Shown here: one piece after another, positions 45,165 to 49,361 of the stretch
Layout: each line of letters begins with the position of its first letter
Numbering within the stretch: the first letter of the stretch is position 1
Assembly (NCBI GenBank): GCA_019358915.1
Contig: JAHHIM010000065.1
Location: forward strand, 192,001-256,000
Source of the DNA: Trichormus sp. ATA11-4-KO1
GTDB taxonomy: Bacteria > Cyanobacteriota > Cyanobacteriia > Cyanobacteriales > Nostocaceae
Length of the DNA: 64,000 nt
Reading direction: 5' to 3'
Notes under the pieces: generated by a model
Database searches by the model: none
Told to the model about the DNA's origin: nothing
What the model saw: the letters and a program-made list of their open reading frames with translations, nothing else
Position numbers and translations under genes: made by a program

Positions 45165-45740
45165 TTAAATAATTTTTGAGGGAAAATTTTTAATTTCCCA
45201 AAAAGTTGTTGATGTTGACAGGTGGCTAATCTGTCTGTTGACTGTGAAAGTTGGTTGTAGCAATTGCGTCTGGAAAGCAGCTTCACCACGAGTTAAGCCT
45301 ATGGCGATCGCTAGCAGCAGACAACCTACAAAGGTTAATACCAAAATAAATACAGCAAAAATTTCACCAGATGAGAGCGGGCGATCGCTTGCGTCTAGAT
45401 AAGCCGATTTCGACCATTTGGGTGCACGGGAAACAGGACGATTTAAGTCAGATGGTGGTTGAATTACCGTAAATCGGTAATAGCGAATTTTTTGGTCATA
45501 GCTTTGTCGCCGTTCTGGGCTGCTAAGGGTGGCGTAGGCTTCGTTAAGTTGCTGAAATTTAGTAGTGGCGACGGCAGTAGGCAAATCTGTAGTATCAGGA
45601 TGATAGCGTTTACTTAGTTCCCGATAAGCGCGACGAATTTCTATTACTGATGCTGAGGGATGTAGTCCTAGCAGGGAGTAATAAGTGGGTTCACTGCATT
45701 TTGGCATTGCCCCATTGTGATTCACGGCTGTTTGAGTCAC
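45165..45740 (-). CDS. J-domain protein with C-terminal TM helix
   Basis: YYSLLGL...YHPD...LNEAY and DRPLSSGE followed by a TM segment. Confidence 0.9.
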   Translation of the reverse strand: MTQTAVNHNGAMPKCSEPTYYSLLGLHPSASVIEIRRAYRELSKRYHPDTTDLPTAVATTKFQQLNEAYATLSSPERRQSYDQKIRYYRFTVIQPPSDLNRPVSRAPKWSKSAYLDASDRPLSSGEIFAVFILVLTFVGCLLLAIAIGLTRGEAAFQTQLLQPTFTVNRQISHLSTSTTFWEIKNFPSKII

Positions 45741-45864
45741 CTTGCAATCGAGTTTTTTTTATATTGTAAACCCCCTGAACCTACGTCAGGTGAACTGTCT
45801 GTGTCTTGCTGAAGCTGATAATCTTTGTGGAAAACTATCAAGCTGCTGATGCAATCAATATTGA

Positions 45865-45980
45865 TAGGACTTACGCAAGAACTCTCTGAAACCCTCTTTT
45901 CTTCTGCTCTTTGTGTCCTTCGTGGTATGCGCTGCGCGCACGCTTCACGAACGTTTTTTCATGATTTTGCGTAAGTCCTG
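45865..45980. mobile_element. MITE with GGACTTACGCA TIRs and ATTGA target duplication, at the edge of a higB remnant
   Basis: attga|TAGGACTTACGCA...TGCGTAAGTCCTG|attga. Confidence 0.8.
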
Positions 45981-45981
45981 A

Positions 45982-46056
45982 TTGATTTACATCAAACATA
46001 TTCTTACTTATGCTAAATATGATCAGGAGGAATGGAAAAATGACCCTTATTTTTAA
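45982..46056 (+). pseudogene. higB: C-terminal remnant of a HigB toxin
   Basis: Translates as LIYIKHILTYAKYDQEEWKNDPYF* and overlaps the higA start, as in intact higBA pairs. Confidence 0.75.
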
Positions 46057-46441
46057 TCAAGATAAATATAAAGAATTATTAATTAAATATCAACCAAAGT
46101 TAATTAAAAATGAAGCAGAAAATGAAAAGGCTTTGGCTATAGTTGAAGAACTGATGTATATTCAAAATCGTAGTCCAGAAGAAAATGAACTTTATGAACT
46201 GCTAATTACGTTAATTGAAAAATTTGAACAAGAATACTATTCACCAGGTAAAGAATCTACACCTCATTCTATGTTGCTTTTTTTGATGGAGCAAAAGAAT
46301 TTACAACAGTCAGATTTAGTAGATATTTTTGGTTCTAATAATATTGTCTTGGAAGTTATGAATGGTCAGCGAGAGATTAGCAGATCCCAAGCTCAGGCTT
46401 TAAGTGATGTTTTTCATGTTGACCCTGGTGTGTTTATTTAA
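46040..46441 (+). CDS. higA: HigA-like HTH antitoxin
   Basis: PKLIKNEAENEKAL, LITLIEKFEQ and HTH region LMEQKNLQQSDLVDIFGS..EVMNGQR. Confidence 0.85.
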   Translation: MTLIFNQDKYKELLIKYQPKLIKNEAENEKALAIVEELMYIQNRSPEENELYELLITLIEKFEQEYYSPGKESTPHSMLLFLMEQKNLQQSDLVDIFGSNNIVLEVMNGQREISRSQAQALSDVFHVDPGVFI

Positions 46442-46606
46442 TTTATTTTTCTATAAAAAAGAAAAACGCAGAGAAGGCGAAATTTTGGTACCATTTGTGA
46501 ATTTGTGATGAGCTTTTACCTTACTCAGTGCTGAGTGCTGAGTGCTGAGTGCTGAGTCAAAAGAAGAAGGAAGGACTTTCGCACTGCACTCTTCATCACT
46601 TACCAT

Positions 46607-46864
46607 TTAGCTTTCATCACCATAATCTAATCTATGCCGAATATCCAAAATCAGGACAATTTTCTGTCCATCTTGAACTTCGTAAATCACACGATAATCA
46701 TCAACATATATACGCCATCCTTCAGTACCCGATACTCTTAGAGCATTTGCAGGTATAGGTGTTGCTGCAAGAGCATCAATCTGTCTCCCGACTTCTCTTT
46801 GAGTAGGCTCAAATAAATTTAGGAACTGGTGATTAGCTTTGGGAAAAATCCAAATAGTATACAT
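46607..46864 (-). CDS. RelE/ParE-family toxin
   Basis: GWRIYVDDYRVIYEVQD..VLILDIRHR; GGAG RBS overlaps the upstream CHAT stop. Confidence 0.82.
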   Translation of the reverse strand: MYTIWIFPKANHQFLNLFEPTQREVGRQIDALAATPIPANALRVSGTEGWRIYVDDYRVIYEVQDGQKIVLILDIRHRLDYGDES

Positions 46865-46872
46865 CAATGCTC

Positions 46873-47712
46873 CTATTTAATTTGAGAATAGAAGCGAATA
46901 GGCTCATCTTTTGAAGCTTTAGCAGCTTGATAGGCATGAATGGCAGCCAATTCTTCCAAAACTGCTTGCTCAACTTGAATAGCCTTACCTCCAGAAGCCT
47001 TGGCAGCTTTATGGACGTTATGGGATTTGAGTTTTTCCTGAAATCTTGGATCGAATGGAAATGGAATGGCATCGTCTATACAAGTCTTAGCTTGTTTATA
47101 GACATAAATAGCTCTCCATTCTTCCAAAATTATTTTCGGATTCTTTATCAGATGTGGGATTTGGTAGTTGGGAATAGGTGAAAACTGAAGCGCATTCCGA
47201 GCCATGTTGAAAGCGAACTCAATAGGCGAACCTGCACAAAATGCGGGGTGATATCCTGCTAGACCATCATAAAAGCCAACAGCAAAAGCGATCGCAGCGT
47301 CGTCCGCAATCGAATCATCCATGCCAATTACGTAGTTTACATTTTGGGCAATTGCCTCTGCTTGAAAACTCGAATAACAGGCATTGAGAATCACACATTC
47401 TCTTGGTTGAGAAAACAGACCAAATAATCCAGCTAATGCGTCTCCTGATACTAGCTGTTCTTTTCCTGTTTCATCTTCCAGAATTAATCCGTGCTTTCCT
47501 GCGCCATGTCCAGAAAAGTGGACTATATCTGGTTGACAGTCTAACAAAGCGCGACGAATATCTCTCGGACGAACTGCCCACCTCTGCTCCAAGATAAAAT
47601 TATCCCGATACTTAGATCGCCTCAAGGCATCCTCAATTTCTCGCACTTCCCGTCCTAACCCTAGCCGTGCTGTTTGGCTGGGATTTGCAGCCAAAAACAA
47701 GATTTTTTTCAT
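46873..47712 (-). CDS. CHAT (caspase-like) protease domain fused to three antitoxin-like repeats
   Basis: MKKILFLAANP, VHFSGHG (His) and VILNACYS (Cys); three 22-aa repeats at the C-terminus. Confidence 0.88.
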   Translation of the reverse strand: MKKILFLAANPSQTARLGLGREVREIEDALRRSKYRDNFILEQRWAVRPRDIRRALLDCQPDIVHFSGHGAGKHGLILEDETGKEQLVSGDALAGLFGLFSQPRECVILNACYSSFQAEAIAQNVNYVIGMDDSIADDAAIAFAVGFYDGLAGYHPAFCAGSPIEFAFNMARNALQFSPIPNYQIPHLIKNPKIILEEWRAIYVYKQAKTCIDDAIPFPFDPRFQEKLKSHNVHKAAKASGGKAIQVEQAVLEELAAIHAYQAAKASKDEPIRFYSQIK

Positions 47713-47983
47713 CTAATTAAGTTTGTGCAGGGTGAATATCAGCTGCTTTACCCCCCCTTCTATCATTCTCTTGAGATGAAAACTGTAATCTTGATGTCAA
47801 AGGATTTTTACTTATTAAGAAAGCCTTCAACAAATATTTAGAAAAAATTATCTATAAGTAGCTAAAAAATTTAGTACATCTAAAAATGAACAAAGAAAAG
47901 CAATAAAAAATAAATTAAGTAGAAATGCTTAATTATGTGTAAGATGTGTAATTCTCTCAATAAAGCATTAAATCCTTGACCAG

Positions 47984-48014
47984 CATGGGTTAGCGTAGCA
48001 TAACCCATCCTACG
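47984..48014. repeat. REP-like palindrome
   Basis: ATGGGTTA-GCGTAGCA-TAACCCAT followed by CCTAC (GTAG-type end on the minus strand). Confidence 0.55.
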
Positions 48015-48088
48015 TTTAATTCAACTCACTTACTTAAATGGGCTATTGTGACTGAGGCTAAAATAAGCATGAAGCGAGTTCAGAAAAT

Positions 48089-48319
48089 ATGACTAACATA
48101 TCTATCATCGACGAAGTAATCGAGCAATTAAGAGCTATGCCGCAGCACTTACAATGGCAGGTATTAGAGTTTGCCCAATCACTGGCCAAATCTCAAGTCC
48201 GAGGGACGCCAGGAAAACATCTGCTGCGGTTTGCAGGTTCAATACCACCTGAAGACCTGCAATTAATACGTGAAGTAATTGAGCAAGACTGTGAACAGGT
48301 AGACATCAATGAATGGTAG
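48089..48319 (+). CDS. putative VapB-like antitoxin
   Basis: GTPGKHLLRFAGSI and CEQVDINEW; overlaps the PIN start. Confidence 0.75.
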   Translation: MTNISIIDEVIEQLRAMPQHLQWQVLEFAQSLAKSQVRGTPGKHLLRFAGSIPPEDLQLIREVIEQDCEQVDINEW

Positions 48320-48356
48320 GTACTTGCTGGATACCAATATCATCATTGCTCTCTTT
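48309..48356 (+). pseudogene. 16-codon VapC/PIN N-terminal stub
   Basis: MNGRYLLDTNIIIALF, then runs directly into the dnaJ stop region. Confidence 0.75.
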
Positions 48357-48359
48357 TAT

Positions 48360-49361
48360 TTAACGCAACAAATCAGCGCGGGGTTTAAAGGTTTCAATTT
48401 GTTTAATTTTTTCGTATAATTCTCGTTCTTCAGGACTAATCTCTTTGGGTGTAACTATCTGAATTTCTACTAATTGATCGCCACGTTGACCGTTATCGTT
48501 GGGGTAGCCTTTATTGGCGAGGCGGAATCGTTGACCAGACCTAACTCCTGGTGGGATTGTCATTTTTACTGGGCCATCCAGAGTTGGTGCTTCTACCTGT
48601 CCTCCCAAAACTGCTTCACTGGGAGTCACTGGTACTTGGCAGAATATATTGGCACCTTCTAGCTTAAATAAGGAATGAGGCTCGACGGTAATTTTTAGGT
48701 ATAAGTCGCCGCCACCAATACCTTGGTTTCGCAGACGGATAGTTTGACCTGTTACCATACCTGGGGGCATAGTCACTTCTAGCGATCGCCCGTCTTCGAG
48801 GCGGATGCGTTCGTTACCACCTTGATAAGCTTTTTCTAGTGGTAGGGTTAATCTAGCTTCAATATCTCGACGAACGGGGCGTGGGGGATTTTTCGGTACG
48901 GTATATTCAACTCTGCTTTTCGGGGAACGAAATGGATCTTTACTTGTGCTGCTACTACCTCCATTTCTGCTATCTTTGCGCGCACCACCTACACCAATAA
49001 CTTGATTAATAAAGCTTTCAAAATCGGAAAATTGGCTGGGATCTACTTCCTGAGTGCTATTACGACCATTTGCGGCACCTGACCAGCTTTTAGGCTTGGG
49101 TGCCTTGTTACTGACAAAGCCTTTTTGTTTCCAGTAGCGACTAAACTGATCGTACTGCGATCGCCTGGCTGTGTCGGAAAGGACTTCGTAAGCCTCACCG
49201 ATATCTTTAAATTTTTCTTCTGCTGACTTATTTCCGGGATTGAGGTCGGGGTGGTACTGCCTTGCTAACCGCCGATAAACCTTTTTTATTTCCTCACCGG
49301 AGGCATCCTTAGGTACTCCTAAAATTTCGTAGTAATCGCGAAAATTCTGCAAATTTTGCAT
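48360..49361 (-). CDS. dnaJ: DnaJ-class chaperone (J domain + C-terminal domain, no Zn finger)
   Basis: [19 protein letters not shown] and [10 protein letters not shown]. Confidence 0.92.

Follow-up and report, generated by a model that had tools for sequence, protein, structure and literature searches.

The question raised by a two-gene unit of the filamentous cyanobacterium Trichormus sp. ATA11-4-KO1 is which of its two products would be the effector and which the partner. The unit lies in a window of 64,000 nucleotides (nt) (assembly GCA_019358915.1, contig JAHHIM010000065.1, positions 192,001 to 256,000). An earlier note described it as a CHAT caspase-like protease that is fused to three antitoxin-like repeats and coupled to a RelE toxin, which the protease might hold and release. 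Comparison with related loci showed that the fusion occurred in place, that the repeats were expanded, that the protease has been conserved, and that RelE has been eroded but retained. The reading that we favour, with a probability of about 45%, is a reversal of roles, in which the protease would act as the effector, and RelE, having been defanged, would dock on it as a regulator or sensor.

The first gene (46873–47712, minus strand; defined by its open reading frame (ORF), Pfam, and orthologues) encodes a protein of 279 amino acids (aa). Its stop codon is at 46875–46873 and overlaps a GGAG ribosome-binding site (46870–46875, minus strand), and the ATG of the RelE-like gene (46607–46864, minus strand; 85 aa from the ATG) follows 8 nt beyond. 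The two ORFs, their spacing, and the overlap were confirmed exactly as first described, and it was also correct that no separate small antitoxin gene precedes the RelE-like gene. The CHAT domain comprises residues 1 to about 191 (47140–47712, minus strand) and is supported by Pfam, profile, Foldseek, a structure model, and the ratio of nonsynonymous to synonymous substitutions (dN/dS). PF12770 matched residues 21–153 above the cut-off (expect value (E) 5.1e-10) and was the sole Pfam domain of the 279-aa protein. The motifs HFSGHG and ILNAC start at residues 65 and 108. The putative catalytic histidine, His69 (47506–47508, minus strand), aligns with the histidine of the GHG motif of the protease SAVED-CHAT, and the putative catalytic cysteine, Cys112 (47377–47379, minus strand), was identified by alignment and is invariant in a 60-row alignment. 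The dyad, which had been called intact, aligns with that of SAVED-CHAT and is kept in all nine fused proteins. The 60-row CHAT profile matched one solved structure, which was SAVED-CHAT (PDB 8TL0, E 1.8e-27), and the same structure was the first Foldseek match of the confidently predicted CHAT model (E 8e-13, 28% identity). The residues of 8TL0 that are aligned with His69 and Cys112 are 47 positions apart, which is the spacing of its catalytic H375 and C422. PADLOC 2.0.0 assigned the domain to its models chat (E 3e-15) and SAVED_CHAT (E 1e-4), and a search of the ESM Atlas with the whole protein yielded CHAT clusters only. By profile, fold, and dyad, the 279-aa protein can be classified as a CHAT peptidase with predicted proteolytic activity. 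A dN/dS of 0.197 over six genomes confirmed that the CHAT domain is under purifying selection.

The CHAT subfamily is modular. In 78 genome loci that were kept from 128 CHAT relatives, many different tails follow the same junction, and in four scanned relatives Pfam identified TIR, AAA_35, GUN4, and EAD9 as C-terminal modules. One CHAT-TIR gene (L040:3935-5089) ends 40 nt before another gene, the product of which, as we take it, starts like ClpC. At another locus (L272-L275, G025 C37:19177-22332 region), an open frame of 921 aa contains at least three tandem matches to the C-terminal half of CHAT, 663 nt apart.

The tail of the window protein was proposed to consist of three gap-free repeats of 22 aa at about 47124–46891. 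Their pairwise identities are 7, 10, and 8 of 22, and the best self-match of the tail scored 47, a value that was reached by none of 300 shuffles (shuffle maximum 34). The repeats are therefore real, and a chance origin was ruled out. They are too diverged for a DNA repeat finder, which did not detect them. Repeat 1 (residues 197–218; 47059–47124), repeat 2 (residues 226–247; 46972–47037), and repeat 3 (residues 253–274; 46891–46956), all on the minus strand, scored 42, 25, and 58, respectively, with a profile of the antitoxin segment (background maximum 23). Repeat 2 is thus the most degenerate copy and repeat 3 the best-kept one, with a domain E of 1.6e-7 and with DNA that is collinear with the end of a free antitoxin gene. 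The DNA alignment also revealed that a 9-nt deletion and an earlier stop codon shortened repeat 3, and that the final helix of the free antitoxin was lost in the window.

The origin of the repeats was traced in both directions. The tail of a relative, used as a query among short proteins, led to a protein of 66 aa, and each of the three closest unfused RelE genes in the family is preceded by an antitoxin of this type. The RelB-like domain PF18506 was found on residues 3–35 of three scanned free antitoxins, twice above the cut-off and once just under it. It was found in none of four scanned fused proteins, and thus, the antitoxin's N-terminal domain is missing there. A profile of five free antitoxin C-termini matched all three repeats (whole protein E 2.8e-14 among 4,599 ORFs), and within the genome it retrieved the fused protein only (E 5.6e-13, 93,283 six-frame segments). 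In the reverse search, a profile of the fused tails matched sequences of the order in 48 other genomes out of 400. The 30 loci that were read from these matches, 19 of 50 matches not having been fetched, contained mostly antitoxins of 50–110 aa, many of them followed by RelE. When 23 fused repeats, including near-copies from three close proteins, were scored against 29 free cores, 22 reached values of 25–58 and one scored 17, and 364 background ORFs did not exceed 23. The terminal Ile is present in all 23 repeats, and the aromatic and basic helix positions are kept in 22 of them. These results support the view that the tail consists of copies of the C-terminal segment of a RelB-like, RelE-partner antitoxin, a resemblance that the earlier note had put forward. 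The C-terminal segment of RelB binds the toxin, and by analogy, the segment in the tail would be the toxin-binding part. The Foldseek matches of the RelE-like model include 2KC8, a structure of RelE bound to a C-terminal RelB peptide. For the free antitoxin, no solved relative was found by sequence (best E 0.61), and the ESM Atlas gave no usable match for the tail. AlphaFold2 yielded no confident structure for residues 213–279 from an alignment only nine rows deep, which shows neither order nor disorder.

The antitoxin segment was also observed in other contexts. A 283-aa protein with hydrophobic segments and no Pfam match (L152:2682-3533) ends in one copy of it and is followed by a RelE with intact motifs; this is an independent fusion of the segment. 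An in-frame fusion at L148:988-1695 unites a complete RelB-like antitoxin with a GUN4 domain. At L142:185-376, L145:1285-1602, and L153:1350-1667, other small N-terminal domains precede this antitoxin C-terminus, which indicates that the segment is easily swapped.

That the fusion might be confined to one genome had been named as a possible objection. The fused pair was found in 6 of 301 family genomes from four genera (G000, G011, G087, G136, G141, and G203), which ruled out an accident of a single genome. The gap between the CHAT-tail gene and the RelE gene ranges from −4 to +8 nt at the six loci. The proteins of G000, G011, and G136 carry three repeats, and those of the other three genomes carry two. 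Three further tail-bearing proteins exist. P0002 is named by its source as Nodularia sp. CChRGM 3473, and a RelE/ParE protein is filed under the adjacent accession; the tails of P0003 and P0005 are known from the protein alone. Named records with the pair (L036-L039) encode proteins equal to ones already counted, and the named relatives belong to the Nostocales. The tail together with RelE was present at 4 of the 78 genome loci and at 2 of 80 metagenome loci kept from 118, and in all these cases the proteins were identical to counted ones. The fused form was not found outside the family in samples of 401 genomes of the order and 301 of the phylum, in which 19 of the 50 order matches were not fetched and the matches in G025 were not read, and a search of 72,556 plasmid and 50,697 phage records gave no match to the tail.

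All six fused loci are located behind dnaK-dnaJ genes. In the window, the respective slot spans 45741–48359. Its upstream edge is a dnaJ-type gene (48360–49361, minus strand; DnaJ and DnaJ_C domains, Pfam and synteny), and its downstream edge is a J-domain gene (45165–45740, minus strand; Pfam, with synteny in four of the six fused loci). Across the family, the dnaJ slot is a hotspot of conflict genes, those of toxin-antitoxin systems among them. The survey of 30 loci, fetched from 61 genomes, revealed a ParE/Phd pair, a TacA antitoxin, a PIN protein, a YafQ toxin, a DNA methylase, and an unrelated CHAT-AAA protein, and several slots were empty. The same slot also harbors a free antitoxin-RelE pair, with intact copies in G039, G053, and G119 and broken ones in G020, G174, G014, and G060. 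At the DNA level, the free and the fused forms align collinearly through the last repeat, the gene junction, and the toxin, so that the overlap of stop codon and ribosome-binding site was inherited from the free pair. In a tree of 37 RelE rows, which has long branches and joins of a kind flagged as risky, the six linked RelEs grouped together (99/98), and their group was nested within the free toxins resident in the slot (86/91). The synonymous distances of CHAT from G000 to G011, G087, and G136 were 0.17, 0.60, and 0.75, and those of dnaJ were 0.12, 0.71, and 0.81. The CHAT distances follow those of the flanking genes, which ruled out a recent transfer between distant genomes. The exception is the pair G141 and G203, with 0.16 for CHAT versus 0.34–0.44 for the flanking genes. 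One genus holds free, broken, and fused forms together. The common slot, the collinear DNA, the nesting in the tree, the flank-like synonymous distances, and the coexistence of the forms show that the fusion therefore arose once, in place, and that it is an old and patchily kept allele of the slot. The idea that a protease replaced the antitoxin's N-terminal domain was thus borne out, at a locus where the free pair survives in other genomes.

The RelE-like ORF matched PF05016 (ParE_toxin, E 1.2e-9, Pfam), a family that, according to the consulted part of a review (PMC11980606), also contains ribonucleases (RNases). The nearest relatives and the solved matches are RelE-type, and an origin from gyrase-inhibiting ParE was therefore rejected. 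The model of the protein had a predicted local distance difference test (pLDDT) score of 92, and its best Foldseek matches were 2KHE, 9G12, 4FXE, and 1WMI; the underlying alignment held 14 free toxins, which favours a RelE fold. The BECR/RelE fold appears to be kept in the model. The catalytic positions were mapped by sequence alignment to E. coli RelE and are given in its numbering. The equivalent of K54 is Tyr in five and Thr in one of the linked RelEs, and that of Y87 is lost in all six. Both equivalents are kept in 14 of 14 free RelEs (from 24 unfused loci, near-copies and broken copies having been left out), and among toxins beside donor-type antitoxins both motifs are kept in 11 of 12. 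The K52 and R61 equivalents are each present in five of the six linked proteins, and the R81 equivalent is Arg in four and Lys in two. The copy in G087 lacks four of the five catalytic residues, including the K52 and R61 equivalents. In the window copy, the positions K52, K54, R61, R81, and Y87 are occupied by R, Y, R, R, and G, with a Tyr one place before the Y87 position. The unusual WRIYVDD in place of WRIRVGD, which had been listed as a warning sign, thus turned out to be part of a general pattern, with residue losses in six of six linked RelEs.

The losses are accompanied by a change in charge. The isoelectric points (pI) are 4.7–8.5 for the linked and 6.7–9.8 for the free RelEs, and the window protein is acidic (pI 5.2). 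Helices 1 and 2 carry one to four basic residues in the linked RelEs, six in three donor toxins, and three to seven in more distant free toxins. In E. coli RelE, these helices are the face that contacts 16S rRNA (PMC2807027, consulted in part). Excerpts of two studies report that Y87A lowered cleavage by E. coli RelE and that the toxicity of M. tuberculosis RelE1 was removed by R60A, the equivalent of K54, and by Y89A (PMC2807027, PMC12620021).

These results bear on the protease-gated release of a toxin, in which the tail would neutralise a still-toxic RelE-fold protein, and an activated CHAT domain would cut or remodel the tail and free the toxin. The freed protein might have residual RNase activity or, in a variant, a new non-enzymatic target, as in ParE-type toxins. 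In favour of this reading, the fused loci retain the order and the junction of the genes of the free pair, and with three of five catalytic equivalents, the window RelE-like protein may have some toxicity. There is also a precedent: in Microcystis aeruginosa PCC 7806, the orthocaspase MaOC1 is encoded next to a ParE/RelE-like pair, the antitoxin of which it cleaves, and this cleavage stops the growth of E. coli, but in the consulted part of the study MaOC1 cut the free antitoxin only and not the complex (PMC7935541). The loss of the Y87 equivalent in all six loci, considered together with the mutants Y87A of E. coli RelE and R60A and Y89A of M. tuberculosis RelE1, argues against toxin release, and so does the copy in G087. 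Release of an active RelE, as proposed in the earlier note, was thus weakened by the losses at K54 and Y87 and retains some ground in the residues at K52, R61, and R81 of the window copy.

Quantification of selection added a further argument. In the slot-resident free pairs, dN/dS was 0.10–0.20 for the toxins and 0.11–0.32 for the antitoxin ends. In the fused system, it was 0.75 for the linked RelE and 0.74 for the tail, and neither mean differed from 1 (p 0.12 and 0.14). A value of 0.75 on very long branches is unlike that of a conserved killing function, although a fast change of the surface could also mean a new target. All in all, we consider toxin release unlikely. A plain pseudogene was ruled out by constrained sites and open frames. 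About 39–41% of the sites are constrained in the linked RelE and the tail (p 8e-11 and 1.6e-4), and the RelE frame is open at six of six loci, whereas none of 20,000 neutral simulations kept all six open. The synonymous distance over the six loci is about 1.8 changes per site. Deletions and frameshifts were seen in each of the four decayed free pairs examined. With the CHAT domain as the source of the neutral rate, the fit for RelE improved when a site class with dN/dS above 1 was allowed (twice the log-likelihood difference (2dL) 19.0, a gain reached in none of 200 null simulations). About one third of the RelE sites fit a dN/dS near 2, and these are located mostly in helices 1 and 2 and at the C-terminus. 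Taken together, the tests are no more than suggestive of positive selection on the linked RelE.

A conserved core with a nearly free surface, the mean dN/dS not being different from 1, would also be expected for a passenger that was tamed. RelE would then have been blunted by selection after the fusion had abolished autoregulation through DNA binding by the antitoxin, and it would have been kept solely to cover an unfolded, degradation-prone tail, so that it stabilises the protease; it would have no sensing role, and the protease would be triggered in some other way. Beyond residue 212 the tail was modelled without confidence, as this explanation would have it, such fusions arise easily, with the same segment on the unrelated proteins L152 and L148, and the slot is full of decaying toxin-antitoxin genes. 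Most of the data would be explained without sensing. However, a joint deletion of tail and toxin would leave a stand-alone CHAT, a form that exists elsewhere, and yet all six loci have kept both tail and toxin over the whole synonymous distance of about 1.8 changes per site. In addition, the tail was expanded to two or three units instead of being trimmed, and a mere cover for the tail does not account for the partial sign of positive selection. We regard this explanation as quite doubtful.

The divergence of the repeats from one another is what might be seen in baits, and the donor pair occurs widely in the order (48 other genomes out of 400). The repeats might thus attract foreign RelE-type toxins, and a foreign toxin that displaces the resident defanged copy would switch on the protease. 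However, the tail has no match in the 72,556 plasmid and 50,697 phage records and no sign of positive selection, and such a decoy-and-guard function is highly improbable.

The reversal of roles is preferred because the effector and the core of its partner are conserved, while the chemistry of the partner is lost and its surface changes fast; a regulatory or sensing subunit fits these features better than a killing enzyme. The course of events can be envisaged as follows. The protease took the place of the front half of the antitoxin, and the putative toxin-binding segment was copied to two or three units. RelE appears to have lost part of its nuclease and ribosome-binding chemistry, with fold, frame, and coupling to the upstream gene being kept, and the RelE-like protein would still dock on the repeats as a non-nuclease regulatory subunit. 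In the simplest form, it would cap the tail and hold the protease apart and quiet until a trigger arrives. The trigger, probably an invader protein that meets the fast-changing outer helices, would strip the RelE-like protein off or cluster the complex. CHAT domains would then associate and cut a host target, so that a single cell of the filament would stop growing or die. The notion that clustering activates the protease is borrowed by analogy from SAVED-CHAT, its closest solved relative. The more specific proposal that RelE was domesticated as a fast-evolving sensor, which docks two or three times on the tail and allows an invader protein to switch on the protease, is tentative and somewhat unlikely as it stands.

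Several results weigh against the reversal of roles or the sensor within it. When the tree length was freed, the 2dL for RelE dropped to 11.0 or 7.6, and in a subset of four genomes it was 3.1–3.2 and not significant. An independent M2a fit, which did not converge, gave no gain, and a grid fit was used instead. All selection tests were run with home-made code on six sequences and an indel-rich region, and for the tail the 2dL was 0.03, without positive selection. The effect of K54A was small in E. coli RelE, as stated in the consulted part of PMC2807027, and the window RelE retains the K52, R61, and R81 equivalents. The Asp that is present in 90% of the free cores is absent from all 23 fused repeats, and thus, the interface between toxin and tail has changed. 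Neither the RelE-like protein nor the free pair was matched by any PADLOC 2.0.0 model, none of the six loci has an adjoining gene for a substrate, for instance a second caspase, and the fused system is rare, with 6 of 301 genomes.

Known systems resemble the fused one in different respects. [quoted passage not shown] Both proteins belong to the same CHAT subfamily, have an aligned His/Cys dyad, and join the protease to a module that may control assembly. In contrast to SAVED-CHAT, the fused protein has no SAVED domain (CHAT was the only Pfam match) and no cyclic-nucleotide signal, and no CRISPR, CD-NTase, or PCaspase gene was found among the neighbours that were read; the neighbours at the six fused loci are dnaK, dnaJ genes, and small toxin-antitoxin genes. 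Furthermore, the protease is N-terminal, and the putative control module consists of antitoxin segments in tandem, the RelE-fold partner of which is a protein of its own. By inference from this analogy, the system would work like SAVED-CHAT, with a protease controlled via a fused module, yet it is not a member of that group. The direct ancestor is seen in pairs of a RelB-like antitoxin (PF18506) and RelE, relatives of E. coli RelBE (4FXE) and T. thermophilus RelE (2KHE), with which the system shares the slot, the gene order, the junction, a homologous antitoxin C-terminus, and the RelE fold. In contrast to these pairs, a protease of 190 aa replaces the antitoxin N-terminal domain, the toxin-binding segment is present two or three times, and the toxin is mostly acidic, lacks the K54 and Y87 equivalents, and is under relaxed or diversifying instead of purifying selection. 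As far as the sequences tell, the system is descended from a RelBE pair, but two defining features, the antitoxin N-terminal domain for dimerisation and DNA binding and the full catalytic set, are missing.

The MaOC1 gene of M. aeruginosa likewise encodes a caspase-like cysteine protease and directly precedes a RelE/ParE-family module (IPF_1067/1065) in a cyanobacterium. According to the consulted part of that study, MaOC1 differs in being a separate orthocaspase, neither CHAT nor fused, the antitoxin is a folded helical dimer, the toxin is active, and the juxtaposition is reported from one strain only (PMC7935541). The cyanobacterial CHAT proteins with TIR, AAA_35, GUN4, or EAD9 modules share the design of a constant caspase-like domain with a variable partner at the same junction, and they occur in filamentous hosts. 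They recall the conflict systems with caspases that Kaur et al. described in 2020 and 2021 (PMC7159879, PMC8195603). Unlike in these module-swap proteins, the variable part of the fused system is antitoxin-derived and brings its own toxin-derived partner. A further likeness, toxin-antitoxin parts in one defence unit, is found in the CapRel fused toxin-antitoxin sensors, in which sensing is reportedly ascribed to the toxin-antitoxin interface and the toxin is said to be the effector fused to its own antitoxin. In the fused system, by contrast, the antitoxin segment is joined to a third-party protease, and the toxin appears disarmed.

Literature searches aimed at a CHAT-antitoxin/RelE architecture, subscription papers being outside their scope, found no description. 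The consulted parts of a review of multidomain RelE/ParE proteins, including three supplements, contain no CHAT or caspase entry (PMC11980606). The words RelE, ParE, and CHAT are absent from the main texts of Kaur et al. 2020 and 2021 (PMC7159879, PMC8195603). The supplements of the former contain no RelE, ParE, or RelB (PMC7159879), and the consulted part of the supplements of the latter names RelE-ParE genes as neighbours in operon strings, the fused system not being among the matches listed (PMC8195603). The system is built from known parts, and its architecture is apparently without prior description.

The surroundings of the two genes yielded additional features. A conserved non-coding box upstream of the protease gene (47782–47810, minus strand) contains TTGACA within an imperfect inverted repeat, AATCCT-N8-AAGATT. 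Judged by its conservation at all six fused loci, displaced in one of them, it is a candidate promoter or operator. The TTGACA box was not seen in four free-pair leaders that were compared, and a promoter scan gave no excess, with 6 candidates versus 5.7 in shuffles. Directly before the protease ATG (47713–47765, minus strand), a G-rich, ribosome-binding-like run and a former in-frame extension of 13 codons were noticed. The extension is open in G087 and G141, and a stop codon lies just before the ATG in the window, in G011, and in G136; the true start codon of the protease may therefore differ between genomes. A plus-strand gene for a 143-aa helix-turn-helix (HTH) protein (46010–46441; weak HTH_3 match) is convergent with the RelE-like gene, without an adjacent toxin partner being seen. 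Its product matches the N-terminus of PADLOC PD-Lambda-2_B (E 6e-21), and presumably it is HigA-like. Between dnaJ and the protease gene, both in the window (48089–48319, plus strand) and in G087, a gene encodes a 76-aa VapB-like/DUF2281-like antitoxin (weak matches) without a toxin. At 46524–46551, just downstream of the RelE-like gene, a 7-nt unit (CTCAGCA, read on the minus strand) is repeated in a short tandem array; short tandem repeats of this kind are common in heterocystous cyanobacteria.

How caspase-like proteases are wired to new sensors in bacteria is an open question, and in most of these systems the origin has been obscured by age. At this locus, the ancestral pair, its decayed forms, and the fused form all occur at one chromosomal slot, which offers a comparison of before and after with two small genes. 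The system is rare, and its weight is conceptual rather than ecological. With a toxin that is still active, the system would be a hard-wired version of what is seen with MaOC1. Should the disarmed RelE control the protease, toxin-antitoxin interfaces would provide immune proteases with modules for regulation or sensing, and genes that are annotated as 'RelE/ParE toxin' could be pseudo-toxins with another job. If RelE is indeed a sensor, the roles in a toxin-antitoxin system would have been reversed, with the former toxin as the guard and the former antitoxin as the killer.

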